A stretch of DNA of 64,000 nt from a candidate division FCPU426 bacterium (GCA_963738405.1 CAVTWJ010000004.1:13499-77498), one strand, 5' to 3'. Positions 38,938 through 59,737 are shown, counted from the first letter of the stretch. Notes: a model not told the origin generated them from the letters alone. Numbers and translations: made by a program.

Positions 38938-39192
38938 TTTGGAGTGGGCGTCAAGGAACCAGTCGCCGGAAAATATCATGGTTGTATATAGGTGATATAC
39001 TGGCCGCATTGAAAAACCCGGCAGTTGAAACGGGATATTAACGGCAGGGCGTTATTGAACGGGATGGTTATCGATGGAACCTGAAGTCCAATAATAAAAA
39101 AACCGGGTCTGGTCCCACGCTCTCCAGCGTGGAACAGGGCTCAATTCACCGCAGAATTGAGCAGGGATTAACCATTATTAGTACGAGTTAGG

Positions 39193-39220
39193 TGTTCACG
39201 ATGGGGACCCGTCGTGGACA
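39193..39220. repeat. Palindromic element copy (TTCACGATGG-GGAC-CCGTCGTGGACA, 2 mismatches)
   Basis: 41 nt upstream of the first AT-rich small ORF. Confidence 0.6.
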
Positions 39221-39260
39221 GGTAACATGGATTGGGAAACATTGAAAGAGGATGTGAAGT

Positions 39261-39665: not shown

Positions 39666-39678
39666 AAAAGGAATTCTC

Positions 39679-39708
39679 TTGTCCACGACGGGGACCCGTC
39701 GTGGACAA
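39679..39708. repeat. Perfect palindromic element TTGTCCACGACGG-GGAC-CCGTCGTGGACAA
   Basis: 13-bp arms, 4-nt loop, followed by AGAAAAAAGG; 43 nt upstream of the next ORF. Confidence 0.7.
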
Positions 39709-39750
39709 AGAAAAAAGGCGTAAAGTGTTATCGGCAATAGGAGATCGAAA

Positions 39751-40086
39751 ATGGATCGCAAAATAATCGCCGAAGTTATATTCGCATTTTTAGGAGTATG
39801 GATGATCGCCCTCCCTTCATTCTTTTTAAAGTTCCTCGCAAAGGGGGCACAGTTTAATTATGAAAATTTAAAATCAAATTTAGATAGGATTAAAAGGGAA
39901 GGGCCGGCAAATCTGAACGAAAAATTAGCGACGAAATTTGGTCCCAACATCTTTCAAAAAATCTCGATGAATAAGGATGTTTATAAACCCCCGACGGAAA
40001 CACAAAAGTGGTTAATGAGATCATTGGGGATATTATTCGTTTGCATATCTCTTGGCGTTTTATTCAATCTGATTGGGGTTAGATGA
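39751..40086 (+). CDS. Small hypothetical membrane protein (AT-rich island gene 2)
   Basis: 111 aa, N- and C-terminal TM helices, AT-rich; GGAGATCG SD-like sequence. Confidence 0.5.
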   Translation: MDRKIIAEVIFAFLGVWMIALPSFFLKFLAKGAQFNYENLKSNLDRIKREGPANLNEKLATKFGPNIFQKISMNKDVYKPPTETQKWLMRSLGILFVCISLGVLFNLIGVR

Positions 40087-40149
40087 AACATTGTTAATTT
40101 TTCTCTCCAGTTTCTTAACCGATTTGAGGACCGTTTGGTTGAAGCTTGT

Positions 40150-40178
40150 TTGTCCACGACGGGGACCCATCGTGGACA
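40150..40178. repeat. Palindromic element copy TTGTCCACGACGG-GGAC-CCATCGTGGACAG
   Basis: One mismatch; followed by AAAAATAAAG; 58 nt upstream of the next ORF. Confidence 0.65.
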
Positions 40179-40235
40179 GAAAAATAAAGTGTAAGTATTT
40201 CATTTGGACGGTATTACGGGAAAAAGGATTAGAAT

Positions 40236-40769
40236 TTGGAAACTAAAACGGAAATAAATCCAAACGAATTTAGAACACTTTACCGTCCCCGTTTTGCTGA
40301 TTGGCTCATTGCTTGTCTTTTTTTCTTAACTTTTGGTTTGGGACTTCCATCTATGTTGGTTGAAAAAAGTTTGGATGTTTGGGGAAAGAACATTTTATCT
40401 TTGGATTCGATTGAAAGGTTTTTTGGGTGCGTTGTAGTAATCGGAATGGAAATAATTTTATTGAAAGAATGTTTAAAATCTTGGCTTTCTGAAGTTAGTG
40501 TTAATTCTATGAGACTAAAATTAAAAATTCTTTCTTTTGAAAAAATAATTGAATGGAAAACTCTTCATTCTATTTCTCTTTCGCCCAATAGCTGGGGAAC
40601 AGTTGATTTGTATTTGTTTTTTCCAAATAAAAAGAAAATTAGGTTTTGGTCGGCCTTTGGTCCTGCAAGTAGATTTATCTACCAAGGTATAAAAGAATTC
40701 AGACCTGATCTGATTGATGAACTGAAAAAGCAGGGGAAAATGCATGAGTATAAAGGTGTATTTATTTAA
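40236..40769 (+). CDS. Hypothetical membrane protein (AT-rich island gene 3)
   Basis: 177 aa, TTG start with AAAAAGGA SD; two N-terminal TM helices; AT-rich. Confidence 0.5.
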   Translation: METKTEINPNEFRTLYRPRFADWLIACLFFLTFGLGLPSMLVEKSLDVWGKNILSLDSIERFFGCVVVIGMEIILLKECLKSWLSEVSVNSMRLKLKILSFEKIIEWKTLHSISLSPNSWGTVDLYLFFPNKKKIRFWSAFGPASRFIYQGIKEFRPDLIDELKKQGKMHEYKGVFI

Positions 40770-40783
40770 ACCAGATACTTAAC

Positions 40784-40812
40784 CTGTCCACGACGGGGAC
40801 CCGTCGTGGACA
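40784..40812. repeat. Perfect palindromic element CTGTCCACGACGG-GGAC-CCGTCGTGGACAG, followed by a second small IR (ACAGTCAGT..ACTGACTGT)
   Basis: Same family; lies directly 3' of island gene 3. Confidence 0.7.
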
Positions 40813-40920
40813 GTCAGTACCACTGACTGTCTTATTCGAAAATGTTTCCCCGGAACTTTCTAGCTTTCTCAAAAAATTTTAGGGGAATGATAAACCTGTA
40901 CTTACCTGGTAAAGTTACCC

Positions 40921-40950
40921 CCTGTCCGCAAAAGGAACCCGTTGTGAACA
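40921..40950. repeat. Degenerate copy of the palindromic element (CTGTCCGCAAAAGG-AAC-CCGTTGTGAACAA) with an AAAGAAAA tail
   Basis: 32 nt upstream of ORF 40982. Confidence 0.35.
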
Positions 40951-40981
40951 AAGAAAATGCCGATAAGGAGCCTTCCAAACC

Positions 40982-41305
40982 ATGACTTCGCGCCCGCCCC
41001 TTTTGATTGTGCTCTGCTTCCTAGGACTCGTTGGTTGTTTTCTGAACATGATGATGGTTTTATCCCCGCCTGTGCGCGAGATCGCGCCCTGGTTTCCAGG
41101 CTACCTATCGGCAGCGACGGCCCTAGCGGCCGCCTGCCTGGGGGGACTGTGGTTTCTCAAACGTTGGGCCCTATGGGGATATACCTTTTATTTTCTGGCC
41201 CAGCAATCCGTCTTTCTTTTGCTTCATCGCTGGGATGCCCATGCCTTGATCCTTCCCTTGGCCGTGACGGCTACGGCCTGGGCCTATTCAAAGAATATGA
41301 AGTGA
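40982..41305 (+). CDS. Small hypothetical 3-TM membrane protein
   Basis: 107 aa; hydrophobic helices (LLIVLCFLGLVGCF, AATALAAACLGGLWFL, LILPLAVTATAWAY); AAGGAG SD; preferred over the overlapping frame 40957..41313. Confidence 0.45.
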   Translation: MTSRPPLLIVLCFLGLVGCFLNMMMVLSPPVREIAPWFPGYLSAATALAAACLGGLWFLKRWALWGYTFYFLAQQSVFLLLHRWDAHALILPLAVTATAWAYSKNMK

Positions 41306-41315
41306 GCGTTTAAAC

Positions 41316-42363: not shown

Positions 42364-43776
42364 TTGCGTGCCCATCTTCTCATTGTTGACGATGAAGAAA
42401 GCGTTCGTGAATCTTTCCGTCTTGCTCTCCAGGAAAAATACGAGATGACTTTTGCCGAGAATGTTAAATCGGCATTAAAGGCGCTTAAACTTCGGGATTA
42501 TGACCTTTGCCTGCTTGATATTCTCCTGCCGGACGGGTCGGGAGTGGATCTTTTAAGGCAGGTGAAACGGAGGGACGAGACCCTAGACGCCATCATGGTG
42601 ACGGCGGTTCAGGGTGTGGATGTCGCATTGGACGCGATGAAACTTGGCGCTTACGATTACGTGACTAAACCCTATAAACTTGAAGAGTTGTATGCCGTCA
42701 TCCATCGCGCGCTTATGAAGCGTAAAATGGAACGGGAAAACCGTTACCTGAAAGAAGAAAGACAAAAACACCATCCCCTGGCCCTGTTGGGCTCCAGTCC
42801 GGAATTTCGTGAAGTCCTTAAAAAAATCGAGGGAATCGCCGCGGTGGAGGGTCCGGTTTTAATTACAGGGGAATCGGGATGCGGGCAGGAAGACATCGCC
42901 CGGGAAATTCATCGATTAAGCCCAAGATCCAACGGTCCCTTTGTCTGTTTGGATTGTTCCGACGTTCAGAGGGGACATTGGGACAGTGAACTTTTCGGCA
43001 TGGAGGGGGATGATTCGTATAAAAGAACTCCTCAATACGGCAAATTGGATTTTGCCCAAGGGGGGACTCTTTTTTTAAACCAAGTCGATTCCATCCCCGC
43101 CCTAATACAGGACAAGCTGGCCGACGCGCTAACGGAAAAGCAATTTACCCGGCTGGAAAGCAAAGTCGTTCAATCGTTGGATGTCCGGGTGATCGCTTCC
43201 TTCGAAATCGAATCGTCGGCCCACACCGCCGCACCGCCATTGCGAAAAGACCTTTTCCAAATATTGAAGATTTTCCCCTTGGCCATTCCGCCTTTAAGGG
43301 AAAGGGAAGGGGACCTGCCTGAACTCCTAAATCAATTCCTTAAAAACGCCAATCAAAGGGCCAATGTTCCGGTTAAAACGATTCATAAGGATGTCATCCA
43401 GCTTTTGGTGAAATATCCTTGGCCCGGAAATCTTCGGGAAATGGAAGCGGTTGTGGAAATGATGGTTCTCTTCGCGGGGAAAGAAAGCCTGGGAATGGAG
43501 GATGTTCCCCTTGATTTACTTGTAAAACAAATCGACCTGGCTCCGTCGAGGGAGGACGCTAAAATTTCCCTCAAAAGGGTCCGTCACCAGTTTGAAAGGC
43601 AATATATCCGGAATGTTTTGGAGCGCACCCGGGGAAACCAAACCCGGACCGCGGCAACTCTTGGACTTCATCGCAATACGCTCATCTGGAAATTGAAAGA
43701 ATTGGATCTTGAAGGTGAATATAAGCAGATTGTGAAGAAGAGGCGTGATCGGGGGATTGGTTTTAAGGACCTTTAA
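42364..43776 (+). CDS. NtrC-family response regulator (REC + AAA+ sigma54-interaction-like + Fis HTH) with a degenerate AAA+ core
   Basis: REC domain with acceptor Asp (CLLDILLPDGSG); Walker A GESGCGQE (Lys to Gln), Walker B LFLNQVD (DE to NQ), GAFTGA absent (ELFGMEGDDSYKRTP); C-terminal HTH TRTAATLGLHRNTLIWKLK. Confidence 0.8.
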   Translation: MRAHLLIVDDEESVRESFRLALQEKYEMTFAENVKSALKALKLRDYDLCLLDILLPDGSGVDLLRQVKRRDETLDAIMVTAVQGVDVALDAMKLGAYDYVTKPYKLEELYAVIHRALMKRKMERENRYLKEERQKHHPLALLGSSPEFREVLKKIEGIAAVEGPVLITGESGCGQEDIAREIHRLSPRSNGPFVCLDCSDVQRGHWDSELFGMEGDDSYKRTPQYGKLDFAQGGTLFLNQVDSIPALIQDKLADALTEKQFTRLESKVVQSLDVRVIASFEIESSAHTAAPPLRKDLFQILKIFPLAIPPLREREGDLPELLNQFLKNANQRANVPVKTIHKDVIQLLVKYPWPGNLREMEAVVEMMVLFAGKESLGMEDVPLDLLVKQIDLAPSREDAKISLKRVRHQFERQYIRNVLERTRGNQTRTAATLGLHRNTLIWKLKELDLEGEYKQIVKKRRDRGIGFKDL

Positions 43777-45713: not shown

Positions 45714-45989
45714 TTGACCAAGAGCGAATTGTTGGGATCATTAGCGAATGATACGGGCTTGAAGAAGAAAGACGTAGATAATGTGATGCAGGCCCTCAGA
45801 AATACCATCTACAAAACCTTGAAAACCGAGCATAAAATCAAATTGGATGGTTTGGGCGTGTTTCAGTTGAAAGACCGCAAAGCCCGGGTTGCCCGCAACC
45901 CCCGCACCGGCGAAATGGTGAATGTGCCCGCGAAAAAGGTAGTTAAATTCCGGGTTTTGAAAGATCTCAAAGAAGCCGTTTTGTCCTGA
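45714..45989 (+). CDS. HU/IHF-family nucleoid-associated DNA-binding protein
   Basis: 91 aa; MTKSELL..., GLGVFQLKDRKARVARNPRTGEMVNVPAKKVVKFR beta-arm; TTG start with GGAGGTGG SD. Confidence 0.85.
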   Translation: MTKSELLGSLANDTGLKKKDVDNVMQALRNTIYKTLKTEHKIKLDGLGVFQLKDRKARVARNPRTGEMVNVPAKKVVKFRVLKDLKEAVLS

Positions 45990-46005
45990 TTTGAAGCATT
46001 CTTTA

Positions 46006-46036
46006 AAGCACCCCGCTTTGCGGGGTGCTTTTTTTT
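46006..46036 (+). terminator. Rho-independent terminator after the HU gene
   Basis: GCACCCCGC-tttg-CGGGGTGC followed by T9. Confidence 0.75.
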
Positions 46037-46147
46037 TGCTCCTATATCTGAATGTTTTTTTGAATAAACCGTTATTTTTAAAGTATCTCTTTTAAAACCA
46101 TTTTCTGGAATACCAGTGGGAAATGGAATAATCTTCCCCTACAACCC

Positions 46148-48598
46148 ATGAAACCAAATTTCTTGCCCTCCAAGGGCAGCTTCCAAGACTCCCGCTCACT
46201 GGGGGTTCTTTTAATGGGTTTCTGGATTCTTTTTTTATTGATCCGTTTTTATTCCTCCCTGGAAAATCCATTTCATGCCCTATTTGCTTGGTTTTCCCTT
46301 CAAGGGATTCCTGACCGGCCATTGAACGAGAAAATAACCATTTGGATAGGCTTCGCCAAGTCGTTGTTTGTCGGTCTTTGGACCCTTTTATTGGCCTGGA
46401 GAGGAGGCCGGAAGATAAGGTTTTTTTTCCACAGATTTGAAAAATCTTATCCAATGGAAGCTTTTTTGGATTTAGCCTTGGGCTTCCTCATGCTCAATTG
46501 CTTCTGGATGGGCTTGGGTTTGACAGGCCTATGGTTTCCCGGATTATGGGCCCTCCTAACCCTGCCCGCTGGTTTATGGGTCATTTGGGATCTTCACCCC
46601 CTTTGGAAAAACCTTCCGCCCATACGGCTGTCCCAGTTGAAAGGTAAAGCGGGTATCGGAATCCTATTTTTATTGTCCCTGGTCTATACGGGAATCTTGT
46701 TCGCCCATGATCTGCTTCCTGAAACCTTCTATGACGCCCTCAATTATTTTTTGGGAATGCCGCAGGCCTGGCTGAACCGCCATGGGATATGCGACCTGCC
46801 GACCCAAATGCTATCGGGCTATTTTCACGGGGGTTCGCTTTTTTTCATGAACGCCCTGATCGCCGGCGACACGGGGGCCGCCAAGACGCTCAACGCTTTG
46901 GTGTTGGTGCTTTGCGTGGGGTTGGTTTGGAAATGGATGGAGGAATGGGGCGAGAAGGAAGGCGCGCTCTTTGCCGCCTTTTGGACCCTGACTTTCCCAC
47001 TGTTCTTCATCAACTCCTGGGCCGTGCGGGTGGACGGCCTGGTAACCTTCTTAACCCTTCTTGTTTTTTATTCCCTCTCGCGTCTTTGGCCATCCGGTGA
47101 AATGGCGGCTAAGGGAGCCCGGGAGGCCTATTGGGTCTTCATGGCTTGCGCCTTGGGCGGGGCGGCGATCGCGGTGAAGCCCACGGCCCTGGTAGGGCTG
47201 GCTGCGGTTTCGCTATTGCTTCTTTGGGATAAGGGGCCTATTTGGTTTTTCCGGCCCAAGCATTGGGTCTTCGCCGGGGTTTGCTTTCTTGTTTTCGCCG
47301 GGCCTTGGCTTCTTAAAAATTGGGTCTATGCGGGCAACCCCCTCTTTCCTTACGCTTCATCCCTTTTCGGCGGGCGTTCCCTAACTCCCGATCATTACGC
47401 CCGACTGCTTGGTGAAAACCACCAGTTTCTTCCCATGGATCACGGCCTTTTCTCTTATCTCACCCTGCCATGGCGGTTGACTATGCCCCAGGAGGGGGAG
47501 ACTCAATTTTTGGGGCCCCTGATCCTGGCTTTTCTGCCATTGTTATTTCTATTGAAACATTTGGACGGCCGCTGGAAACGATTGGCCTGGTTGACGGCCT
47601 TGTATTTGATATTAGGGCTCTGTTCCACCCACATGCTCCGTTTTTTAATGCCGGGGTTTCTCATGCTCTTCGTGCTGGTGGGGAAGGCCGTGGCCCATTC
47701 GGGAGAGATGGTTAAAAAAACAGCTTGGGCGGCACTGGGGCTATCCGCAGTTTTGAACCTGGGCTCCTACGCGGTTTTAAGTTCTCGTTATTTTGACGGC
47801 GCTGGGGTTTGGTCGGGCCGGGAAACGCCGGAAGCCTACCTCGACCGGAAAATGATCAATTCTTATGAGCCGCTGGCCCGCTGGTGTGACTTTCTTCCTT
47901 CCGAATCCAAGGTGCTGGTGGTGGGGGATGCGAGGGGCCAATATTATCCCCGTCCTTTTCTCGCCAATTCGGCCTTTGATATGCCCTTTTTCGAGGAAGC
48001 CGCCAAGGAAGAGAAGAGCCCCCAGGGAATCCTAAAGCGCCTGAAAGAAGCCGGGATCGACGCCGTGGTCCTCAACCTACCGGAAGGCATGAGATTGAGC
48101 CAGCAATACGGCCTCTATCATCTCACTCCGGACCAATGGAAAAAGTTGGACCTCTTTTTTAAAGAAGGTCTAAAACCAGTCTTTATCAGGCCTACCCTGC
48201 AAGCCTATTTGGTGGGTGATTCACTTGGCGCCCCTGATTTAAAGGCTCCTTTTGATCCCTTCACCTTTTTTGACGCCGCGACTTTTGAATTTACCGAAGC
48301 CCTCCAAGCGGGTGACCTGAAAAAGGCAGAGGGATTGAGGCTTGAGGTATTTAACCTTTTCCCCCGGGATGCCTATTGGCGGGAGCAATTGGCCCGATTG
48401 GACGAAGCGGAAGGAGTTCCCCAGCAAGCGTTGAAAGATTACAAGCAAGCGGACCAACTGGGGTTTTTGTCCCCGAATGGCTATGAAAGCTGGAAAACCC
48501 TTAGCCGAAAGTGGGGAAGGGGCAGGGACTTAGCCTTGATCACGAAAAGGGAGAAGGCTTGGGCTTCCCAGAAACAAACCGCGGGGGCTCAACCTTGA
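46148..48598 (+). CDS. Large polytopic membrane protein, GT-C-fold glycosyltransferase-like (ArnT/PMT/YfhO-like), paralog A
   Basis: 816 aa, >12 TM helices in the N-terminal ~500 aa, then a soluble C-terminal domain; conserved block ETFYDALNYFLG..GG.LFFMNALIAG shared with the downstream paralog. Confidence 0.55.
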   Translation: MKPNFLPSKGSFQDSRSLGVLLMGFWILFLLIRFYSSLENPFHALFAWFSLQGIPDRPLNEKITIWIGFAKSLFVGLWTLLLAWRGGRKIRFFFHRFEKSYPMEAFLDLALGFLMLNCFWMGLGLTGLWFPGLWALLTLPAGLWVIWDLHPLWKNLPPIRLSQLKGKAGIGILFLLSLVYTGILFAHDLLPETFYDALNYFLGMPQAWLNRHGICDLPTQMLSGYFHGGSLFFMNALIAGDTGAAKTLNALVLVLCVGLVWKWMEEWGEKEGALFAAFWTLTFPLFFINSWAVRVDGLVTFLTLLVFYSLSRLWPSGEMAAKGAREAYWVFMACALGGAAIAVKPTALVGLAAVSLLLLWDKGPIWFFRPKHWVFAGVCFLVFAGPWLLKNWVYAGNPLFPYASSLFGGRSLTPDHYARLLGENHQFLPMDHGLFSYLTLPWRLTMPQEGETQFLGPLILAFLPLLFLLKHLDGRWKRLAWLTALYLILGLCSTHMLRFLMPGFLMLFVLVGKAVAHSGEMVKKTAWAALGLSAVLNLGSYAVLSSRYFDGAGVWSGRETPEAYLDRKMINSYEPLARWCDFLPSESKVLVVGDARGQYYPRPFLANSAFDMPFFEEAAKEEKSPQGILKRLKEAGIDAVVLNLPEGMRLSQQYGLYHLTPDQWKKLDLFFKEGLKPVFIRPTLQAYLVGDSLGAPDLKAPFDPFTFFDAATFEFTEALQAGDLKKAEGLRLEVFNLFPRDAYWREQLARLDEAEGVPQQALKDYKQADQLGFLSPNGYESWKTLSRKWGRGRDLALITKREKAWASQKQTAGAQP

Positions 48599-48618
48599 AT
48601 CCGCGTCCTTCTTCCGCC

Positions 48619-50943
48619 ATGGCACCTTCTTCCATCCGCCTATTGCTCGCGGGTGCCTGGGCGCTGGGCCTGATTATTTTTTATTTTAAAACGGCCTCCA
48701 TCACCTTTTCGGCCGTTCCAGGTTTCTTTGATCTTTCCCGATTTCTGGACGTGGATTTCTCCGCCCGATGGGCGGTTTGGAAAGGGTCTTTAGGGATATT
48801 GGTTGCCTCGGCTGGAATCCTATGGCTGGTCATGGGATGGGGAAGACGGGTGGCTGGGTTATTAGGTCTCAAACCCGCTTCAAATTTCCTGCGCTGGGCC
48901 CTTTCTTTTGGCTTGGGGGGGTGCGTCCTGAACTTGTTTTGGATGGGAAGTGGTTTGGTACGGCTGTGGTTTCCGTGGGAGAAATGGCTGAATCTATTTA
49001 TGATGGCCATAAATCTGATATGGATCAATACAGGGTTAGGCGCGTTTTGGTATCCGCACTTAGAATGGATTGTGGTTCTGCTATTGGTGGTTGTTTTAAT
49101 GAAGCCGGCCTTTGGTTTTTTACGATCTGCAAGAAATTTGCGTTTCCCAGTTATAAAGCCTCCTAGTTTGGGTCTTGGATTGTTGGTCTTAATGGGGTTG
49201 TGGTTCAACTTATTATCCTTCACTCAGGCTCTAACACCTGAAAGCTTTTACGATTCGATGGTTTACCACTTGGCTGTCCCTGCCTTTTGGCTTCAACATC
49301 ACGGTATGATAGATTTCCCGACGAATTTTTTTTCCAATTATCCCTTTGGCGGGGAGTGTTTTTTCTTGAACGGGTTTGCACTTCAGGGTACCGAGACGGC
49401 CAAGATGCTCCAGGCCCTAACAGTTCTGGCCTGTGCCTTCGCGGCGGGCGGTTGGGCCGAGGAAGTGGCGGGCCCTTCGGCCGGTATCAAGGCCCGCTGG
49501 CTCGCCTTTGGCTTGACGGCCACCCTTCCCCTTCTGACCTTGAACGCCTGGGCCACCCAGGTGGAAGGGTTATTGACGCTCTTCATCATTCTTTTTCTTT
49601 ATTGTCTGACTCGCTTAAATGAGGGCGGTAAAAGATGGGTTTTGGCGGCAGGGCTTTTGGCGGGCGGGGCCTTAAGCGTCAAATACACGGCTCTCTTTGC
49701 CCTGGTGCCTGCCTTGGGGCTCTTGGGTTTTCAAAAAAGCTTTCGGCGTTTCTTTTCTTTTTCCAACATCCTGATCTTCGGGACCAGCGCATGCTTACTC
49801 TTTTTGCCCTGGGTTCTTAAAAACGTTGCCTATACGGGAAACCCGGTTTTTCCTTACTTGCCTAATTGGTTTTCGGGCCGTCATTTAAGCACCGAAGGAT
49901 TCGCTCGTTTAATGGAAGAACAACATGCGGTAGCCGCCCATACCTTTTGGCAATGGTTGGCCCTACCCTGGACCCTCACCTTTTCTAACCCCGACAGTTA
50001 CAACTTTTGCGGGCCCTTGGCTTTGGGGTTGGTTCCTATTCCCTTTTTGATCGGGTCTAAGCATCCGGCATTAAGGTTCCTTTCCCGCTTGTGCCTGCTT
50101 CTATTGGTGGTCGGGTTGGCTTCTACTCATATCCTTAAATTTTCCTTGCCGGTTTTTCCCCTCTTTTATGTGCTGGTAGCTTGCCTGGCGGGAATCCAAA
50201 CCGATTCCAGATGGCTAACTGGCACAGCCTGGGCTGGGGTTTTGGCGAGCCTTCTTTGTTTGGGGCCTTTGCTGGCAATCGCCCAGTACTACTACCCCTC
50301 CATGGGCGTCTTAACAGGGGCTCAAACGAGGGACGAGGCCTTAGTTTCGCAGGGCAAGATCACACCCTATTTGCCAATGGCCCGGTGGCTTTTGCCACCC
50401 CACGTGACAGCCTCATCGACTCTCTTGATCATTGGGGATGCGCGGGGCCTTTATTACGGCCAGCCTTTTCAAACCAACACGGTTTTCGATGAACAGTTTC
50501 TCTCCAGGGCCTGCCGGGAAGGGAAGGATGCGGAAGGTTTGAAACTCGCCTTAAAAGAAGCGGGGGTGGATTACCTGGCGGTGAATGGGCCGGAGGGGAT
50601 TCGGGTTTCGGATCAGTACCATCATTACGATTTAACCTCCGCCCAATGGCAGCTATTGGATGACTTTATACAAACGGGAACGGATATGGTTTATTCCCAT
50701 AACCTTCAGGCGGTTTATAAGATCAGGAGTGATTGGAAGGCAAAGCCCTCGTCCGAAACACCCGATCTGTTGCTGTTGTTTTCGAAGCCCGCTGTCGACT
50801 TCATGCGCCAATCGCAACAGCAGAAGTGGGATGAAGCCCTGGTCGATCTTCAGGAAACCGCGAAACTTTATTCATTCTCATCTTTTTGGCAGGATCAGTT
50901 GAAGGAATTAGAGAATAAGATTGGGAGTTTGAAAAATGGTTGA
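48619..50943 (+). CDS. Paralogous GT-C-like polytopic membrane protein, paralog B
   Basis: Same TM topology and conserved blocks (ESFYDSMVYHLA..GGECFFLNGFALQG, LTLNAWATQVEGLLTLFIILFLY) as paralog A; start refined to MAPSSIRLLLAG. Confidence 0.55.
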   Translation: MAPSSIRLLLAGAWALGLIIFYFKTASITFSAVPGFFDLSRFLDVDFSARWAVWKGSLGILVASAGILWLVMGWGRRVAGLLGLKPASNFLRWALSFGLGGCVLNLFWMGSGLVRLWFPWEKWLNLFMMAINLIWINTGLGAFWYPHLEWIVVLLLVVVLMKPAFGFLRSARNLRFPVIKPPSLGLGLLVLMGLWFNLLSFTQALTPESFYDSMVYHLAVPAFWLQHHGMIDFPTNFFSNYPFGGECFFLNGFALQGTETAKMLQALTVLACAFAAGGWAEEVAGPSAGIKARWLAFGLTATLPLLTLNAWATQVEGLLTLFIILFLYCLTRLNEGGKRWVLAAGLLAGGALSVKYTALFALVPALGLLGFQKSFRRFFSFSNILIFGTSACLLFLPWVLKNVAYTGNPVFPYLPNWFSGRHLSTEGFARLMEEQHAVAAHTFWQWLALPWTLTFSNPDSYNFCGPLALGLVPIPFLIGSKHPALRFLSRLCLLLLVVGLASTHILKFSLPVFPLFYVLVACLAGIQTDSRWLTGTAWAGVLASLLCLGPLLAIAQYYYPSMGVLTGAQTRDEALVSQGKITPYLPMARWLLPPHVTASSTLLIIGDARGLYYGQPFQTNTVFDEQFLSRACREGKDAEGLKLALKEAGVDYLAVNGPEGIRVSDQYHHYDLTSAQWQLLDDFIQTGTDMVYSHNLQAVYKIRSDWKAKPSSETPDLLLLFSKPAVDFMRQSQQQKWDEALVDLQETAKLYSFSSFWQDQLKELENKIGSLKNG

Positions 50944-52825
50944 TCGAATGGGAAGGGCATCAATTGGGCTTCTTCTTTTTTGGGTGCCCCTGACCTTCTA
51001 TTCCCGCAGTGCGGACGGCTTCGTACTGTCCAAAGAATGGGTTGCTCTGGGTGCCGGGATTTTGCTGGTGGGGTTGGCCCTTTCCCGTATCCCAAGCCTT
51101 TTGCGAAATCCATTGGTTGTTATTTCGGGTCTCTTTCTGCTGTGGATGCTGGGAGATGGATTACTCACTGTGTCTGATTCCACATCTGTGTGGGTCGGTT
51201 CCGCCTATCTTTGGGTCATTTTCCTTACCTTTATTGCGGTGGTTTTGATCGCTGGGCGGGGATTTACCTACGAAAAAATGCTTCATCTAGCCCTAGCGGC
51301 AGGGGTTTTCACGGCGGCCTATGGCTTGGCACAGGCATTGGGGGCCGATACCCATAATTGGGACACTCATTTCGAACGCCGGGCCTTTGCCACGCTGGGT
51401 AACCCCGATTATCTGGCCGGTTACTTGGTTGCTCTCCTTCCCATGTCGTTGATTCTTACCCTTCGATCCTCCGGTCAAAGATGGTGGTTCGGTTTTAGGG
51501 CCATCACCCTTCTATTATTCGCCGGGCTTCTCGTAACACGGGTTCGAGGTTCCTTATTGGCTCTAGGGCTTTCCCTGTTAGTTCTGGTCTTGGGGCTTTG
51601 GATGCCCTGGGGCAAAACACTTGCCGCTAAAAATAAGAAAACCCTCGGGATTGCCTTCGCACTGTTGTTAGCGGGTGGGGCGGCTTATTGGTTCCGTTAC
51701 GGGGGCTTGAATGCTTTCGACATGGGGCAGGTTTCGGTTCAACAGCGCCTTCAGACCTACCAGGTGGGGATGGAAATGCTGAAGGACCACCCCCTCACCG
51801 GGATCGGCCTGGGCCAACTGGGACGGGATTATCCTCTCTACCAATGGAGGCCCTATACCCAAGCCGAATGGCCTGCCCATCCCCTGACCCTGACGGAACA
51901 TCTCCATAATGAGTTTTTGCAGTTCGCTGTGGAAGGCGGATGGATCGGATTGGGGTTGTATCTGCTGGTTCTGTTGGCCTTTGCCCGACAGACCTTCCAG
52001 CTTTTTGGAAATCCAACCACCTCCTCCGCCTCTAAAGAATTAATGTTGGGAATCGTGGCTTCGCTGGTTGCTCTGTTGGGGCAGGCTTTGACCAATTTTC
52101 CCTTTCAAGTGATCCCAACGGGAGTACTTTTGGGATTGTTCTTTGCGGCGCCAGTGGCATTAGCGCCAAGGGCAATAGAACCCCAAAGGTTTCGCGTGGG
52201 TCGAGTCTCAATGGCGGTATTAGGCTTGGTTCTATTGGCATTGGGGGCCTGGGGGGCCAAGAACATGGCGGCCTCCATCGCTTTAAGGGACACCGTGGGT
52301 GAAACCAACCTGGGGAACGCGGCCAAGGCCGGTGCCTATGCCGATCGGTTAGCGGGTTTGGCCCCAGGCGACCCTAAGGCTTGGGACGCGGTGGCCAAGG
52401 CTAGGGAATTGAACAAGCAATGGGACGGGGCAATGGAATCCTACGCCCGGGAAACAGCGCTCAACCCTAACGTGGTGGAAGCCTATTACGCCATGGCTCA
52501 AGACCGGATCATGCAGGGGCGTTTGGATGAAGCCCTGGCCCTTTGCCAAAAATGTTTAGCGGTGGCGCCTAATTATTCGTCGGTCGTGTGGCTGGAAGGC
52601 GTTTGCTATTTCAAGTTGAACCGATATGCCGAGGCCACACAGGAATTTGAGCAGTTCATTCCCTATGCACCCATGGAAGAATCACTCTATGTAAATTTGG
52701 GGGTTTGTTACGTAAAGTCGGCCCGTAAGGCCGACGCAGTGGCGGCTTGGAAAAAGGCTTATTCCCTCAACCCGCAGGACGCCCAAGTGGTCCTTTATCT
52801 AAAATCGGTGGGTGTGAAGATTTAA
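50936..52825 (+). CDS. O-antigen ligase (Wzy_C) family membrane protein with C-terminal TPR repeats (WaaL/PglL-like)
   Basis: Multi-TM with the Wzy_C signature (HLHNEFLQFAVEGGWIGLGLYL, periplasmic loop GIGLGQ); C-terminal TPR units (AYYAMAQDRIMQGRLDEALALCQKCLAVAPN...). Confidence 0.7.
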   Translation: MVDRMGRASIGLLLFWVPLTFYSRSADGFVLSKEWVALGAGILLVGLALSRIPSLLRNPLVVISGLFLLWMLGDGLLTVSDSTSVWVGSAYLWVIFLTFIAVVLIAGRGFTYEKMLHLALAAGVFTAAYGLAQALGADTHNWDTHFERRAFATLGNPDYLAGYLVALLPMSLILTLRSSGQRWWFGFRAITLLLFAGLLVTRVRGSLLALGLSLLVLVLGLWMPWGKTLAAKNKKTLGIAFALLLAGGAAYWFRYGGLNAFDMGQVSVQQRLQTYQVGMEMLKDHPLTGIGLGQLGRDYPLYQWRPYTQAEWPAHPLTLTEHLHNEFLQFAVEGGWIGLGLYLLVLLAFARQTFQLFGNPTTSSASKELMLGIVASLVALLGQALTNFPFQVIPTGVLLGLFFAAPVALAPRAIEPQRFRVGRVSMAVLGLVLLALGAWGAKNMAASIALRDTVGETNLGNAAKAGAYADRLAGLAPGDPKAWDAVAKARELNKQWDGAMESYARETALNPNVVEAYYAMAQDRIMQGRLDEALALCQKCLAVAPNYSSVVWLEGVCYFKLNRYAEATQEFEQFIPYAPMEESLYVNLGVCYVKSARKADAVAAWKKAYSLNPQDAQVVLYLKSVGVKI

Positions 52826-54112: not shown

Positions 54113-56755
54113 TTAAGCTTTCGCCGGTAATTCAAGGGTGAACTCGGTAAATTTCCCCTTTTCACTCCTCGCCGAGATCCTTCCCCCTTGCTCCCGCAAA
54201 ATGCGGTAGCAAATACTCAAACCCAATCCCATGCCCTGTCCCACGTCTTTGGTCGTAAAAAAGGGATCAAAGATTTTATCCAGGTTTTCGGGGTTGATTC
54301 CTGAACCGTTGTCCCGGACCTGGATGAACACCTTCCCGTTTTCAAAACGGCTCTTAATCCATATCAGGGGCTCTTCGCCATCGAAATTCTTTTCCTTCAG
54401 GGCGTCGGAGGAATTTTGAATCAAATTCACGAAAACATGGATCATCTTGTTCCGGTCGGCCAGGACCTGCTGGTCTTCCGGCACTTCGATTTCGACCTTG
54501 ACCCTATCCTTTAATTCGTGGCCCAGAAAGCGTAAGGCGTTGGAAAGAATTTCTTTTAAGCCGATCAGGTCCACGCTTCCCCCTGCCTTGGGGTGGGTGA
54601 AGCTGCGAAGATCGGACACGATGCGCTGAACCCGGTTCACTCCGTCCTCGATATCGGTGACGGTTTCAACGAACTTTTCCCTTTCTTGATCGGGCAGGCG
54701 GTCTTTTTTCGCTTTCAACAGATAGAGGGCTTGCACGGCGTAATTGAGAGGGTTGTTGATCTCATGAATAATACCGGCGCTGAGACGCCCAAGGGAAGCC
54801 ATCTTTTCGTTTTGGACCAATTGCCCTTCCGTTTCCTTCAGCTGTTCGAGAGTCGTTTCTAGTGCACTTTTTTGTCGGATCAACTCCCGCTGAAATTGAT
54901 GGGATTCGATCAAATTTTTGACTCGTACATGCAGTTCGGTGTTGGAAAAAGGTTTTGTCAAAAAGTCGCTCGCGCCGGCGTCCAAGGCCGAGAATTTGGT
55001 GTCCTCGTCGGCCCGGGCGGTCAAGAGCACGACAGGAATGGCTTGGGTGGAAACTTGTTTTTTCAATTCCCGGCATGCCTGGACGCCGTCTTTCTCGGGC
55101 ATCATCATGTCCAGCAGGATAAGATCGGGCAGGAACTGCTTTGCCTTTTCCACCGCCTGGTTTCCATCCACGGCCTCGATGATCTCGTAATGTTTTTCCA
55201 AGCGCGATTTGATGAACCTCAGCATGTCCGGCTCATCGTCCGCCACCAGCACCTTTTTCTTTTGGCTATTTCCGTAGTTGTCCGTGCGGAGGGACTCCGA
55301 AAGGGGCGTCAGGGTGCTGAAAAGCTCGGCTCGCCTGTAAAGATTGGTAAGCCATTCCTCGTCCTGGGCAGATTCGGCCAACATTCCACCGGGTTCCCCG
55401 GCTTTTTCGGAGACCGGAGAGGTCTTGGCCGCCTCGAAGGGAATCCGGATCGTCATGGTCGTGCCCGCTCCCAGACGGCTTTGAGCCGTGACAGAGCCCC
55501 CTTGGGCTTCTGTTAATTCCTTCACCAGGGCAAGGCCGATGCCCGTTCCCTGGTACTTCCTTTGGGCCGAGGAATCGGCTTGCCAGAAACGGTCGAAGAT
55601 AAAGGGAAGATTTTCCTCGGAAATCCCCATGCCCGTATCCTTGATCACTAATACCAGTTGGGAATCTTCTTTATTCGCGGTCAATTCCACCCGCCCCCCG
55701 CTGGGGGTGAACTTCAAGGCGTTAAAAAGGAGATTGAGGATGATTTTTTCCATTTTGTTCTGATCCAGCATGACGGCGCCAATGGATTCGTGGACGCGGG
55801 TGGAGAGGTTGATCCGCTTGTCCTTCGCCGTGCCCTGAATGGACTGGATCAAACCCTTCACGAAGAGTTCCAAATTCACTGGTTCTTTTTTGACCTCCAT
55901 GCGGCCCGATTCCAGCTTGGCCAGGTCCAGAAGGTCATTGATCAGTTTCAATAAACGCATTGCGTTGTTTTCCATGGTGGACAGGATGTCCCTGGATTCC
56001 TCATCCAACAGATGCTTTTTTTGATTTCTCAGGGCCTGGAGGGGCGAAACGAGAAGCGTTAAGGGCGTTCGGAGTTCATGGCTGATATTGGCGAAGAAAC
56101 GGCTTTTCATTTGATCCATCTCGATCAGTTTTTGATTGGTTTCCGCAAGTTTTTTTCGGTTCTGGTCCAGCTCATAACGGGTCGTGAACTCCCGGATGCG
56201 CAGGCGGTTAGTGAAATAACTTCCAACGACCGCGAAAGTGGAAGTCAGAATGAGGAAATAGGTATTGTTGAAAAAAAGGCCACCGAAGGAAACCGGCCCG
56301 TGGGCAAAGCAGGCGGTTAAGTACATCAGAAAGGTCAGCCCGGAAAAAATGAGCGTTTCCTGGTAGGTCCAGGGAGAGACCAGGCAAAAGGCCACCAAAA
56401 CCACGTTGAGCCCGGCGTAATAGGGGGAGTGGGCTCCTTCCGAAGCGTAAATCATCCAGGCGATGGCGCCCTGGGGCACCATGAGCATGGCGATGAAGAA
56501 AACCCGGTCCAATCGCGCGGCCCAGGGGCGGTAATAAAGGATTAAAAATATGCCCACCAATAAGGAAGAATACAATCGGAGCTCTAAAAAATAAGGAACC
56601 AACGAGGGATAAACATTCATGTCCAACGATATGCCCGCCGGCATCCCAACCATCGCGAAGATACATACGATTTTAAATAAACGGGACCTTTCCGCCCGGT
56701 TGTAATCCTCATAGGCTTTTTGAACTTCAGGCTGTTCCAGCAGTTTTTCTTTCAT
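54113..56755 (-). CDS. Multidomain hybrid sensor histidine kinase (7-8 TM sensor, HisKA+HATPase, REC, second HisKA+HATPase)
   Basis: N-terminal polytopic domain; H-box 1 [10 protein letters not shown]; HATPase 1 [17 protein letters not shown]; [25 protein letters not shown]; H-box 2 [10 protein letters not shown]; HATPase 2 [17 protein letters not shown]. Confidence 0.85.
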
Positions 56756-58167
56756 TTGGGTTTCCTCACCTCAAGAAAAATATTGATGCCTGTGTCTTCC
56801 AATGTGATTTCGCAAGCACCCTCGGGGGCACCTTCGGGTTTAAGGATGCCCATTTGTTCCCGATTTCGATAGATCAAATGCCATTCCATGAAACTTTCCA
56901 TCGTGTTAATCAGAGGATTGGTGGGCGTTACGTTCGTCGCCAGCAGCAGCCCACCCGGAGCCAGAAGGGCATAGAAATAATCCATCAGTTTTTTGCAAAT
57001 CCGGTCCTCCAGGTAATCGAAAAGGCCTGCGACATAGATGAAATCATAGACCCCTTCCTTTGGGCCTTCGTAGGGTTTGAAAGTTTCTTTAAGGATATGG
57101 TTGACGGATTTCTTGACCATTTTGATGGGCGTCCCACGGCGGTGTCGGCTCTTGATGTCATCCAAAATCTTTCCAGTGAATTCCAGGGTCTCGTCGTTGA
57201 AGTCATACAGGGTAAAGTCCGCCTTTTCGCAATAATCGTCGTGGGCCAGGAAGTTTTGGACTTCTTTGGCTGGGCCGCAGGCCATGTCCAGAACCCGAAG
57301 GGTGCGGTTTTCCCGGATCGCCCGCATGGTTTCCTCGTTCAACCTTTGGATGAGGTGCTTGATGCGGTTGCGGTGGGCTTCGCAGGGCGGCGAATTCACA
57401 AACCAGAGGTTCACGATCTTGGCGAAAAGGGTGCTTCCCTCCAGGGGGTCCCTCAGCATCATATTGACCATTTCATAATCGCCGGCGTACCCCAGCGGTT
57501 TTTGAAAACTGCGGTAAACAAAGGGCGAGCAAAGAATGATGGGGTGCATTTGCCGGCGGCTGTAGGAACGGTGGATGGATTGAAGCTCGGGGGGTATCCC
57601 CGCGATGGTCTCCTCAAATCGCTCGAAGAGCGATGAAACAGTCGGGGCGATGGGGTCCTTCAATTGAAGGATGACGTCCCGTTCAGTCTGGTTCCGGTTC
57701 CCCGAGGGTTCGGACCGGATGCTCAATTCCACCTGTTCCAGCCAGCGGCGCATATCCATCAAGAAAGTCTGCATATCGGCGATCACCACCTTGAGGTTGT
57801 CCTCGATGTGGTGGATCTTGTCCCATTCTTTCAGAAATTCGGAAAATTCGCTCTGAAGCTTGTCTTTCTGGTGGATGGAGGAAAAGATATCAACGTCCAG
57901 CCAATTGTCCTCCAGGGTGCATTCGCAAACCAGGAGGATGCCGGTGTTCAACAGGTTGCTCACGACCGCGCGGCCGGAATAAACCATCCGTTCATTCATC
58001 ACCATCTTAAAATCGGTCAGGACCTCAGAGAGCTGGAGAATGCTGTAAGGGTTGTAAACCTCGAAGACGACCGAATAACGGGTCAGCCGCAGGAGGGTGG
58101 CCCGCACCTCGGCTCCCTGGCTGTTGCGGCAGTGGATAAAAGTGTCTCTACCCGTCGAGATGGACAT
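56752..58167 (-). CDS. Two-domain SAM-dependent methyltransferase (PhcB-like: N-terminal domain of unknown function plus C-terminal class I MTase)
   Basis: MTase motif I LRVLDMACGPAKEV, acidic-loop FTLYDFNDE, motif II/III YDFIYVAGLFDYLED; start refined to MSISTGRD to avoid the 110-nt overlap with the PPTase. Confidence 0.75.
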   Translation of the reverse strand: MSISTGRDTFIHCRNSQGAEVRATLLRLTRYSVVFEVYNPYSILQLSEVLTDFKMVMNERMVYSGRAVVSNLLNTGILLVCECTLEDNWLDVDIFSSIHQKDKLQSEFSEFLKEWDKIHHIEDNLKVVIADMQTFLMDMRRWLEQVELSIRSEPSGNRNQTERDVILQLKDPIAPTVSSLFERFEETIAGIPPELQSIHRSYSRRQMHPIILCSPFVYRSFQKPLGYAGDYEMVNMMLRDPLEGSTLFAKIVNLWFVNSPPCEAHRNRIKHLIQRLNEETMRAIRENRTLRVLDMACGPAKEVQNFLAHDDYCEKADFTLYDFNDETLEFTGKILDDIKSRHRRGTPIKMVKKSVNHILKETFKPYEGPKEGVYDFIYVAGLFDYLEDRICKKLMDYFYALLAPGGLLLATNVTPTNPLINTMESFMEWHLIYRNREQMGILKPEGAPEGACEITLEDTGINIFLEVRKPK

Positions 58168-58184
58168 GTCGCTTTTTTTCCGAT

Positions 58185-59021
58185 CTAAGATGGGGTCTTT
58201 GAATATCGAAACTCCAGAGTTTCCCGCAGTTTCTTTTCGTCCCAGTGGAATTTTTGATAAATCGGGCTGGGACCTTTCCGTGAAGAAGCCAGCCAATTTT
58301 CATTCCCGGGCCCGGTGATTTCACCGAGGATCGTCGCGTGACTCAAACAATAGCGGTCCTCCAACACGAATTGGGAAAATAGTTCGACAGAACCCCGGCG
58401 GATTCGTCCTTCCGGAGGAAAGGAAACCGTGAAAGAACCGTCATCCCCGCCCCATCCCAGGCCCATCGCCTTCAGAAATGCTTCTTTTAGGGTAAAGATT
58501 CTCAGAAATACCAAAGGGCGTAAGGCTCGCGGCTGCTTCTCCAGATATTCTTTTTCCTCCGTGGAAAAATAACGGTCCGCGATCAGCCGCCAATCTCTAT
58601 TTTTCGACTCCATAAGCGCTAGTTCCACATCGATTCCAACAGGAAAAGCTGAAACCGTCAGGGCCACTAGGCCTTCCGTATGGGAAAGATTGAAATGTAA
58701 GTCCCGGCTTCTCAAAGCGGGTTTACCGGAGGGACTTAGGATGAATTCTAAATCTATCATTTCCCGGCCAGTGTAAAAAGAAAGCAAGTGACGGGTCAGG
58801 ATGCGGGAAAAAAGAAATTCCTTCTTGGCGTAATGCAAACTCAGGAAATGAAAATCGCGATTTTCGTCAGGGCTCAGAAAATGAATCAGGAATTCGTCCG
58901 GATGTTGAGTGGGTTTGGAATCAAATTCAAGAAGGTGAATGTGGATCGCATTGAGAGATAGAGCTTCGGGGCTCTCTGTCTTGCGGTCCATCGCAAGGTT
59001 TGGGTTGGGGAGGGTCATCAT
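58185..59021 (-). CDS. 4'-phosphopantetheinyl transferase (Sfp/EntD family)
   Basis: PPTase motifs FNLSHTEG, GIDVE, FTLKEAFLKAMG. Confidence 0.8.
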   Translation of the reverse strand: MMTLPNPNLAMDRKTESPEALSLNAIHIHLLEFDSKPTQHPDEFLIHFLSPDENRDFHFLSLHYAKKEFLFSRILTRHLLSFYTGREMIDLEFILSPSGKPALRSRDLHFNLSHTEGLVALTVSAFPVGIDVELALMESKNRDWRLIADRYFSTEEKEYLEKQPRALRPLVFLRIFTLKEAFLKAMGLGWGGDDGSFTVSFPPEGRIRRGSVELFSQFVLEDRYCLSHATILGEITGPGNENWLASSRKGPSPIYQKFHWDEKKLRETLEFRYSKTPS

Positions 59022-59737
59022 CCGGCGCCGCCGTCCATCACCATGACACTTCCATTGAGGTATTCCGGGGCTTCCTCCGCTAGAAAATAGACAACGCGGG
59101 CGACCTCCTTCGGTTCACAGAAACGTTTCAAGGGAACGACTTGAAGAAGGGCTTCCTTCGCCTGCGGGGAAAGCTTATCGATCATGGGGGTGGTCACCCC
59201 TGCCGGCGCCACCACATTGGCGATGACCCCGTAGGGTCCGCATTCCTTGGCCAAGGCCTTAGTAAAACCGATGATGCCGGCCTTGGAGGCTGAATAGTTG
59301 GTCTGACCCGGCAATCCATGGATTCCGGAAACGGAAGAAAGATTAATGATCCGGCCGTTCTTTTTTTTCATCATGTCGGTGGCGAAGCGGCGGGTCAGGT
59401 GAAAAACGCCTGTCAGGTTGGTGTTCAAAACATCCGTCCAATCCTCATCTTTCATAGCGAAAAGGGGTTTGTCCCGGGTGATTCCGGCGTTGTTCACGAG
59501 TACGTCCACATTCTTTTCTTCGTCTAAAACCGCTTTGCAGAAACGATCGCAAGCTTCCCGGTCCGCCACATCTAGATGATGGGCCCGGGTCTTTCCGTCA
59601 AAGCGTCCCTCGATCTCACGGGCTGAAGCCTCATTGGAATGGAACGTGAAATGAACCTTCCATCCTGCGGCCGCGAAGGTTTCCACCAGACTTTTCCCGA
59701 TACCGGAGGAACCGCCCGAAATAACCACCTTTTTCAT
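59018..59737 (-). CDS. fabG: SDR-family 3-oxoacyl-ACP reductase (FabG-like ketoreductase)
   Basis: GGSSGIGKS Rossmann motif, NNAG, catalytic S...YSASK. Confidence 0.85.
   Translation of the reverse strand: MKKVVISGGSSGIGKSLVETFAAAGWKVHFTFHSNEASAREIEGRFDGKTRAHHLDVADREACDRFCKAVLDEEKNVDVLVNNAGITRDKPLFAMKDEDWTDVLNTNLTGVFHLTRRFATDMMKKKNGRIINLSSVSGIHGLPGQTNYSASKAGIIGFTKALAKECGPYGVIANVVAPAGVTTPMIDKLSPQAKEALLQVVPLKRFCEPKEVARVVYFLAEEAPEYLNGSVMVMDGGAG

Follow-up and report, generated by a model that had tools for sequence, protein, structure and literature searches.

A conserved FCPU426 operon encoding two paralogous, predicted GT-C enzymes and a Wzy_C/TPR protein with a probable role in periplasmic glycosylation

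The window analysed here, a 64,000-nucleotide stretch of DNA, derives from an uncultured soil/peat bacterium of candidate division FCPU426. It harbors three tandem genes on the plus strand (termed A, B and C), all of which are present as open reading frames where a sequence-only reading of this DNA had placed them. Upstream lies the HU gene (45714-45989), followed by an intrinsic terminator on the plus strand (46005..46031) that comprises a 12-bp stem with 8 GC pairs and then a T run. An equivalent hairpin and T run is found 3' of HU in every related locus inspected, and the HU terminator delimits the A-B-C transcription unit on its upstream side. Gene A (46148..48598) encodes a predicted GT-C glycosyltransferase of 816 residues, or of 794 residues if translation starts at ATG 46214, as in the database copy P0001. 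Gene B (48595..50943) encodes a paralogue that shares the layout of A. It is listed with a GTG start at 48511, giving an 88-nt overlap with A; the likely start is TTG 48595, which generates a 4-nt TTGA overlap with the stop of A, similar to the 4-nt overlaps annotated in relatives, with ATG 48619 as the alternative. Gene C (50936..52825) encodes a 629-residue membrane enzyme of predicted Wzy_C/WaaL fold with a C-terminal TPR domain, and its ATG (50936) precedes the stop of B (50943), an 8-nt overlap that had been noted before. Translationally coupled through these 4- and 8-nt overlaps and located behind a terminator, the three genes form a single operon, as had been proposed. Public pipelines have already named the products GT39 family and O-antigen ligase family.

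Pairwise comparison by BLASTP revealed that A and B share 32% identity over 790 residues with an E-value of 3e-93, far beyond chance, which bears out the paralogy suggested for the two large proteins. Both exceed the gathering score of PMT_2 (PF13231; 37.5 bits for A and 31.4 for B vs 26.1). This model matches 48 of the 56 family members, compared to 11 for TMEM260-like (PF11028), among them P0029 at 24.8 bits vs 24.2, and four for PMT; some members of the wider family pass the PMT (GT39) cut-off. Pfam searches of A and B gave no match to PF02366 (PMT/GT39) or MIR, and none to PF11028 at E<=1; the NCBIfam ArnT model likewise gave none at E<=1. The only NCBIfam match of the two proteins, the LIC_10190 family (NF047510), was rejected at 48.4 bits for A and 16.3 for B vs a cut-off of 100. 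At the sequence level, no PDB chain is matched. Structural similarity search using the AlphaFold model of A assigned the GT-C fold with high confidence, the top matches being ArnT, ALG12, Pmt4, STT3, AglB, PglB and AftA. On account of the PMT_2 match and this fold search, A and B are best described as paralogous predicted GT-C enzymes, and these searches place them in no family outside the glycosyltransferases. Among the comparators named in the sequence-only reading, ArnT and PMT are thus appropriate, whereas YfhO is not: PF09586 matches neither A nor B, nor any of the 56 family members at E<=0.01.

The likeness to ArnT is structural only, and membership in ArnT/GT83 was rejected, with no curated model match and no arn genes nearby. 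The Cupriavidus metallidurans ArnT (GT83, PDB 5f15) shares only 15% sequence identity, lacks both the N-terminal extension and the α/β plus TPR lobe of A and B, and has lipid A as its acceptor. Compared to the fungal/bacterial PMT (GT39) and the eukaryotic protein O-mannosyltransferases TMTC1-4, A and B lack the MIR domain as well as the PF02366 match, and their TPR tail comprises only about three hairpins and follows an α/β domain.

Both large proteins are polytopic. The overall organization of A, a polytopic N-terminal domain with ~17 membrane helices in the AlphaFold model followed by a soluble C-terminal tail (residues ~560-816), agrees with that first proposed. The model further predicts that the GT-C core is preceded by an N-terminal extension (46148..46651, plus strand) with roughly four membrane helices; these four extra helices, ascribed to both A and B, were absent from the earlier description. 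A conserved Gly/Trp motif of FWMGLGL type lies within the extension of A, and Gly112 (G90 in M23-numbering) is invariant in the 56-sequence family alignment. The Lys/Arg-rich loops RGGRKIRFFFHR and KNLPPIRLSQLKGK of A appear to alternate as expected from the positive-inside rule, from which we infer that the first loop of the GT-C core faces the periplasm. This loop carries the motif PETFYD (46718..46735, plus strand) with a putative donor-positioning or catalytic residue, Asp196, followed by His212 and Asp216. Pro191 and Asp196 are invariant among the 56 sequences, including relatives at ~20% identity, in line with the acidic residue anticipated in this loop. Moreover, conservation of Glu192, Asp196, His212 and Asp216 reaches at least 95% among the 18 orthologues of A and likewise among the 16 of B.

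The soluble tail begins with a predicted periplasmic α/β (Rossmann-like) domain (47891..48223, plus strand), in which the AlphaFold model has five strands (residues 567-570, 582-584, 617-621, 653-658 and 662-667). It contains near-invariant Gly593-Asp594 (in VVGDARG) and Phe610-Asp611; the Gly-Asp dipeptide, 93-96% conserved (alignment A1), sits after the first strand in both A and B. A search with a profile of this domain retrieved 5908 cluster representatives (E<=1e-3), mostly proteins of 620-830 residues in which the match covers roughly residues 540-690, and the domain marks a large uncharacterised bacterial family of ~5900 clusters. TPR-like helical hairpins (48257..48586, plus strand) form the C-terminus of A. 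A further addition to the earlier reading is that A and B alike keep the conserved acidic and basic residues: B retains the catalytic-site candidates, and both enzymes look active. The paralogues are distinguished by nine fixed differences, three of them beside the Asp, and therefore probably differ in the sugar or acceptor site.

The modelled periplasmic tail of five-stranded α/β domain plus TPR-like helices, also new relative to the first reading, follows the layout reported for human TMEM260 (PF11028, TMEM260-like/DUF2723), for which distant bacterial homologues have been noted (PNAS 2023). TMEM260 is reported to consist of a GT-C core, a Rossmann-like domain and a TPR domain that clasps a peptide in extended form; the catalytic base, Asp441 of an R-G-D motif, sits early in the Rossmann-like domain, and the loop-1 Asp and His are 15 residues apart (D52/H67) (bioRxiv 10.64898/2026.03.17.711096). 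Compared by description, the model of A appears to have the same order of GT-C core, five-stranded Rossmann-like domain and short TPR, likewise on the non-cytoplasmic side; its loop-1 Asp and His are 16 residues apart, and the conserved Gly-Asp early in the α/β domain of A and B is likened to the R-G-D from the text of the paper alone. A and B differ from TMEM260 in their additional four helices at the N-terminus and in a core with more helices than the 11 of TMEM260, and no Asn ladder is evident in their TPR-like tail. By analogy, A and B appear to share the layout, and possibly also the division of labour, reported for TMEM260.

Gene C encodes, as first described, a Wzy_C/TPR protein downstream of the paralogues. 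Pfam Wzy_C (PF04932) matches residues 190-343 with 69 bits vs 31.7 (5.2e-19), and the Wzy_C domain with its large periplasmic loop (51503..51964, plus strand) contains Arg271 and the motif EHLHNEF with His324. Among 43 sequences, Arg271 is invariant, and Arg204, His324 and Glu333 are near-invariant. The AlphaFold2 model of C (pLDDT 90.2) resembles WaaL (PDB 7tpg, chain B), with a Foldseek E-value of 1.4e-5 and a TM-score (target) of 0.64 over 444 columns; phmmer against the same chain gave 2.3e-7. Both share the Wzy_C domain, the 12-helix fold and the aligned Arg and His-x-His-Asn motifs, such that SVQQRL and EHLHNE of C align to SVGVRL and EHAHND of the solved WaaL. The TPR domain (52319..52807, plus strand; ~4.5 repeats, residues ~460-620) matches TPR_1/2/8 and related HMMs, as well as the consensus TPR, MamA and OGT TPR structures. 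Compared to WaaL, PglL, PilO and WsfB, the model of C has an extra 13th helix (residues 423-458), which should place the full ~160-residue TPR domain in the periplasm; the 12-TM WaaL topology and the Arg-rich loop APRAIEPQRFRVGR point to the same side. We thus regard C as a Wzy_C plus TPR protein with a WaaL-like membrane fold, as modelled.

The architecture of PglL, PilO and WaaL ascribed to C by the sequence-only reading stands in part. To our knowledge, TPRs are normally absent from WaaL and PilO, whereas the protein O-oligosaccharyltransferases WsfB and PglL are reported to combine Wzy_C with a TPR motif at the C-terminus and thereby set a precedent (PMC2943079). Unlike PglL-type enzymes, C has no PglL_A or Wzy_C_2 accessory domain at E<=1 in Pfam. 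Every NCBIfam match of C falls under its cut-off, and TfpM (11.7 bits vs 600), the exosortase-associated O-ligase (TIGR03097, PEP_O_lig_1; 57.2 vs 188.1) and IctB (TIGR00947; 40.4 vs 366.4) were accordingly rejected. A Wzy polymerase of a classical O-antigen cluster was rejected as well: both in the window and among relatives, C is surrounded by HU, regulators, OGG and RelA, a setting without Wzx, Wzz or sugar-nucleotide genes, nor is there an LPS, pilin or S-layer glycan cluster around it.

The HU-A-B-C order is kept, at 38-70% identity, in most related FCPU426 loci that reach far enough downstream, and the A-B-C set is thus retained across most of the sampled phylum; this recurrence indicates that the duplication is old and that the module is core and not an O-antigen cluster. 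The operon is flanked by HU, two-component regulators and OGG, and neither it nor its immediate surroundings contain a GT2 carrier-sugar synthase, a flippase, an initiating phosphoglycosyltransferase or a sugar-nucleotide gene.

Taken together, those parts of the earlier interpretation that lend themselves to sequence and structure analysis hold up, and A-B-C would act in the periplasmic glycosylation of envelope proteins or glycans, probably of proteins. The analysis establishes the paralogy, the folds and family matches, the residue conservation, the operon structure and its retention across most of the sampled phylum. Our tentative reading, whose chance we put slightly short of even, is a protein O-glycosylation module at the outer face of the inner membrane, for which we infer donors, acceptors, topology and enzymatic activity as follows. 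A and B would belong to the ArnT/PMT/ALG branch of GT-C enzymes, whose members draw single sugars from polyprenyl-monophosphate carriers, and would use such donors themselves; an indirect hint comes from a distant member of the family that adjoins a GT2 gene, as expected of a polyprenyl-phosphate sugar synthase partner. Their membrane core would hold the donor through Asp196 and His212 of the first periplasmic loop, Lys344 and Lys390/Asn391, and their periplasmic lobe would present the acceptor with an α/β "palm" bearing Gly-Asp594 and TPR-like "fingers". Wzy_C enzymes of the WaaL/PglL type use undecaprenyl-diphosphate-linked glycans as donors and pass them to an acceptor; C may transfer such a glycan to an acceptor picked with the help of its periplasmic TPR domain. 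The likeliest acceptors would be Ser/Thr-rich segments of exported envelope proteins. In favour of protein O-glycosylation, all three proteins bear TPR-type modules predicted to face the periplasm; against it, the structure search ranks ArnT, which modifies lipid A, highest, and TPR domains are found in polysaccharide export machines too. The donor-side genes missing around the operon, the lack of TMEM260-like and PMT matches for A and B, and the absence of PglL_A and Wzy_C_2 from C likewise count against it. A Thr/Pro-rich lipoprotein at 36152-38887 had been suggested as a target. The protein is present, and its residues 30-215 contain 42% Thr and 12% Pro, but composition aside nothing speaks for the link: the gene lies within an ~8-kb variable insertion missing from relatives, so that synteny gives it no tie to A-B-C, and no homologue occurs in any related locus.

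Alternatively, the operon might serve the assembly of an envelope polysaccharide, which we consider fairly unlikely. Here C would be a Wzy-type polymerase or ligase for a conserved cell-surface polymer, and A and B would add side-branch sugars in the periplasm from polyprenyl-phosphate sugars, much as GT-C enzymes do in "three-component" systems of glycan modification, or as do the Emb/Aft enzymes of mycobacteria. The GT-C fold indeed also matches AftA, AftB, AftD and EmbB, the wider family includes GT-C paralogues arranged in tandem (L030), and three-component GT-C systems decorating bacterial glycans are described in the literature (PMC11127046). TPRs are common in polysaccharide machinery, with weak matches here to the PgaA, BcsC and PrsT TPR models. 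The dcw cell-wall cluster, with its deacetylase and amidase, is invariably located upstream of the module; however, HU, its terminator and regulator genes stand between dcw and the operon, and genes for Wzx, Wzz, export and glycan-building glycosyltransferases are absent in or near the operon in every locus. In addition, the nearest sequence families of A and B are protein O-mannosyltransferase families, and their α/β plus TPR lobe resembles, by description, the peptide-binding lobe of TMEM260.

Maturation of LPS or another glycolipid is unlikely. In this scheme C would be a WaaL-type ligase transferring an undecaprenyl-diphosphate-linked glycan onto lipid A-core or another lipid anchor, and the ArnT-like A and B would add single sugars onto the anchor or core. 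WaaL is the only solved structure matched by the membrane domain of C, and the Arg and His motifs of the two align; retention throughout most of the phylum suits a core envelope function. Nevertheless, no NCBIfam ArnT or WaaL model is matched, the α/β plus TPR additions of A/B and the TPR of C are absent from ArnT and WaaL, and the neighbourhood lacks lipid A and core genes. It is highly improbable that A and/or B is a non-catalytic scaffold or chaperone for the other paralogue or C: the A-B translational coupling and the GT-C pairs Pmt1-Pmt2 and EmbA-EmbB, which work as complexes (PDB titles 6p2r and 7bvf), would fit such a role, but all candidate catalytic residues are at least 95% conserved in both lineages, and in L021 and L014, which have lost B and C or keep them in degraded form, A is still present by itself.

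In a more specific form of the protein O-glycosylation reading, which we hold to be rather doubtful, A and B would be the bacterial equivalents of the TMEM260-type protein O-mannosyltransferase of metazoans, their periplasmic α/β domain providing the catalytic base and their TPRs a clamp for the peptide. Together with the TPR-bearing Wzy_C oligosaccharyltransferase, they would constitute a housekeeping two-tier protein O-glycosylation system in most of the FCPU426 phylum, supplying single sugars from polyprenyl-phosphate and en-bloc glycans from polyprenyl-diphosphate. If true, this would provide a first functional handle on the ~5900 uncharacterised bacterial protein clusters.

Proteins A and B, two tandem GT-C-like membrane proteins, and protein C, a membrane protein of the Wzy_C/WaaL fold, are encoded by three ORFs on the + strand, as the sequence-only reading had stated, with A at 46148-48598, B ending at 50943 and C at 50936-52825. 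The overlap reported between the last two genes was also found, with 8 nt common to the stop of B and the start of C. The mechanically listed start of B, GTG at 48511, is unlikely; TTG at 48595, in frame with B, gives a 4-nt overlap with the stop of A, as gene callers give for the relatives, and ATG at 48619 is a further in-frame candidate. The HU gene (45714-45989, + strand) lies directly upstream of A-B-C and carries at its 3' side a strong terminator (46005-46031), so A-B-C forms a unit of its own; a hairpin like that of the window stands 3' of HU in every relative inspected. A strong intrinsic terminator invariably closes the HU gene, and the HU protein is 91-99% identical between loci in which the remaining proteins share only 40-55%. 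The syntenic NtrC-type activator prompted a search upstream of A for the sigma-54 motif TGG-N9-TGC. It is absent there in the window and in 20 of 21 relatives, the sole match (locus L017) lying within the gene, and a sigma-54 promoter for A-B-C was dropped. Compared to the rest of the window, the AT skew in 46001-52000 is strongly negative (-0.19 to -0.29); the probable cause is the T-rich codons of membrane proteins with much Leu and Phe.

The alignment of A with B spans 790 residues at 32% identity (E 3e-93), which makes them paralogues, as proposed. Both score above the curated Pfam cut-off for PMT_2, in agreement with the glycosyltransferase-like character ascribed to them. Assignments to YfhO and LIC_10190 were rejected on score. 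An exact-sequence look-up returned no record for the window's own A protein (P0001) or for the protein P0213. AlphaFold models A with confidence (pLDDT 90.8, pTM 0.91). Neither A alone nor a 56-sequence profile has a real sequence match among PDB chains, so the link of A and B to solved GT-C enzymes is one of modelled structure only. About four extra helices precede the GT-C core, and the Lys/Arg content of the connecting loops alternates in a manner that fits the positive-inside rule, from which we infer that the invariant loop-1 motif PETFYD, containing Asp196 (numbering of A), is periplasmic. In 49 columns, conservation reaches at least 95% among the 18 A and also among the 16 B orthologues; these columns include E192, D196, H212, D216, K344, K390 and N391, together with Asp611 and the Gly593-Asp594 pair. 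At nine positions, A and B carry different fixed residues; three of these positions (198, 199 and 201) lie beside the Asp. With the candidate residues kept and these differences fixed, A and B are both predicted to be active and look diverged in specificity.

The tail of A and B contains a five-stranded, Rossmann-like alpha/beta domain, for which no Pfam model was found; a word-indexed search with its profile gave short unnamed fragments only, with no Pfam assignment. Searched against 1.84 billion entries, the profile matched 5908 cluster representatives at E<=1e-3 and 2067 at 1e-10. In full-length matches, proteins of 620-830 aa, the domain occupies about residues 540-690. Many of these members end directly after it, and the TPR tail is therefore an addition in the A/B lineage. 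Sampled members score above threshold for PMT_2, often also for PMT (GT39), at about residues 210-375, which implies an N-terminal extension as in A and B; among 56 aligned relatives, PMT_2 was found in 48, a TMEM260-like match in 11 and PMT in four. A GT2 gene stands directly after one distant member. Another lies on an unrelated metagenome contig (L030, 125-10065) within a row of five successive GT-C genes, which encode YfhO-like, DUF6311 and PMT_2 proteins and two PMT/PMT_2/DUF8201 paralogues of the A/B family, with a sugar epimerase/dehydratase gene adjoining.

The same domain order is seen in the published description of human TMEM260, in which a GT-C core is joined to a Rossmann-like domain, whose sheet has five strands, and to a TPR domain of five helices (2026 preprint 10.64898/2026.03.17.711096). 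In TMEM260, D52 and H67, both in loop 1, keep the donor in place, the catalytic base is D441 (in R439-G440-D441) of the Rossmann-like domain, and the TPR "fingers" grip an extended peptide (10.64898/2026.03.17.711096). A and B have a loop-1 Asp and His 16 residues apart, and in their alpha/beta domain a near-invariant Gly-Asp follows strand 1. They have no PF11028 match, and we regard the likeness, drawn from the published description, as resemblance rather than demonstrated homology. Distant bacterial homologues of TMEM260 were noted earlier (PMC10214176).

In protein C, residues 190-343 form a Wzy_C domain and a run of TPRs comes after it (about 460-620), the architecture that the sequence-only reading had given. 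Its model is confident (pLDDT 90.2), and the membrane part resembles the solved WaaL (7tpg_B), with a Foldseek E of 1.4e-5, a TM(target) of 0.64 and a phmmer value of 2.3e-7; SVQQRL and EHLHNE of C align to SVGVRL and EHAHND of WaaL, respectively. R271 is invariant, and R204, H324 and E333 are near-invariant. An Arg-rich loop after the twelfth helix leads into a long 13th helix (423-458), by which the TPR domain should be periplasmic. A C-terminal TPR motif has been described in the S-layer O-oligosaccharyltransferase WsfB and in PglL (review PMC2943079); PglL_A and Wzy_C_2 domains are absent from C. All NCBIfam matches of C fall far under their cut-offs, and exosortase-type, IctB and TfpM assignments were rejected on score.

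A scan with one genome per species gave 23 loci, mostly titled "candidate division FCPU426" and a few with generic or doubtful labels. In most loci of sufficient length, tblastn shows one fixed order, FtsZ, deacetylase, amidase, PgeF, then OGG, NtrC-type regulator, HU, A, B, C. In the window, the region upstream of the module is the complete dcw cluster (10744-32883, + strand: MraW, PASTA-domain PBP, FtsW, MurG, MurC, MurB, Ddl, FtsQ, FtsA, FtsZ), running from MraW to FtsZ and followed by polysaccharide deacetylase, Amidase_3 and PgeF (Cu-oxidase_4); FCPU426 relatives, too, have the cluster's tail (FtsZ, amidase, PgeF) upstream of the module. In four loci (L011, L013, L015 and L016), tblastn matches the window's sigma-54 activator (42364-43776) only at residues 1-132 and 364-468, so the syntenic NtrC-like regulator upstream of HU appears to have lost its central AAA+ domain there. 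Genes downstream of C vary between relatives.

Orthologues share 38-70% (A) and 41-69% (B) identity with their counterparts in the window, whereas A and B are always 32-35% identical to each other; the duplication is therefore older than the sampled radiation, and both copies were kept. C orthologues, at least 42% identical, occur only in the same set of loci, beyond which similarity falls sharply. Loci L020 and L022 have a divergent Wzy_C-TPR gene, and L004 a divergent middle paralogue. In L021 (9911-14621), HU and A are followed directly by RelA, with B and C absent; L014 (6704-10100) retains A, with B in fragments only and C absent. These appear to be two independent cases of A kept with B and C missing or degraded, which weakens an obligate A-B heterodimer; the joint loss of B and C hints that these two work together.

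Sugar-nucleotide, Wzx, Wzz, initiating-transferase and GT2 genes were not found in the operon or its neighbourhood, which places C outside a classical O-antigen cluster. Tentatively, we favour a periplasmic glycosylation module, in which A and B would move single sugars from polyprenyl-phosphate donors and C would move a polyprenyl-diphosphate-linked glycan to an acceptor, with exported proteins as the likeliest acceptors. Of the main rivals, a conserved surface polymer, undergoing side-chain decoration together with polymerisation or ligation, seems unlikely, and maturation of LPS or a glycolipid slightly more so. The enzyme classes of all three proteins are already known, and public pipelines already name them "glycosyltransferase family 39" and "O-antigen ligase family"; still undescribed are the A/B architecture, a Wzy_C partner equipped with TPRs and the retention of all three genes in most of the FCPU426 genomes sampled. 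If protein glycosylation is the function, the GT-C/Rossmann-like/TPR design of human TMEM260 would be backed by a large, old bacterial family, thousands of "GT39 family / hypothetical" membrane proteins would gain a testable role, and a candidate phylum known from metagenomes only would have a conserved envelope glycosylation pathway. The paired GT-C and Wzy_C-TPR enzymes could also serve as glycoengineering parts. Were the acceptor a glycan or lipid, A-B-C would be just one more envelope-glycan module of known enzyme classes.

The predicted lipoprotein proposed as a possible target (36152-38887, + strand, 911 aa) looks by composition like a good O-glycosylation substrate, with 42% Thr, 12% Pro and 68 TxT patterns in residues 30-215; it matches no Pfam family. 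As a syntenic partner of the module it was rejected: tblastn found no homologue in any of 26 loci, and between PgeF and OGG the window has 8.4 kb where relatives have 0.6-3.4 kb, which places the protein within a variable insertion. This insertion (33363-41313) also carries an AraC regulator, a 546-aa unknown protein and small hydrophobic ORFs, and at 38-42 kb the GC content is close to 0.46. On the - strand, a cluster at 58185-62589 encodes a 4'-phosphopantetheinyl transferase, a FabG-like reductase, a FabA/ApeI-like dehydratase, a truncated ketosynthase-like protein and a full ketosynthase, and resembles an aryl-polyene or specialised fatty-acid cluster; it is adjoined by a gene for a 514-aa methyltransferase-domain protein (56752-58296).
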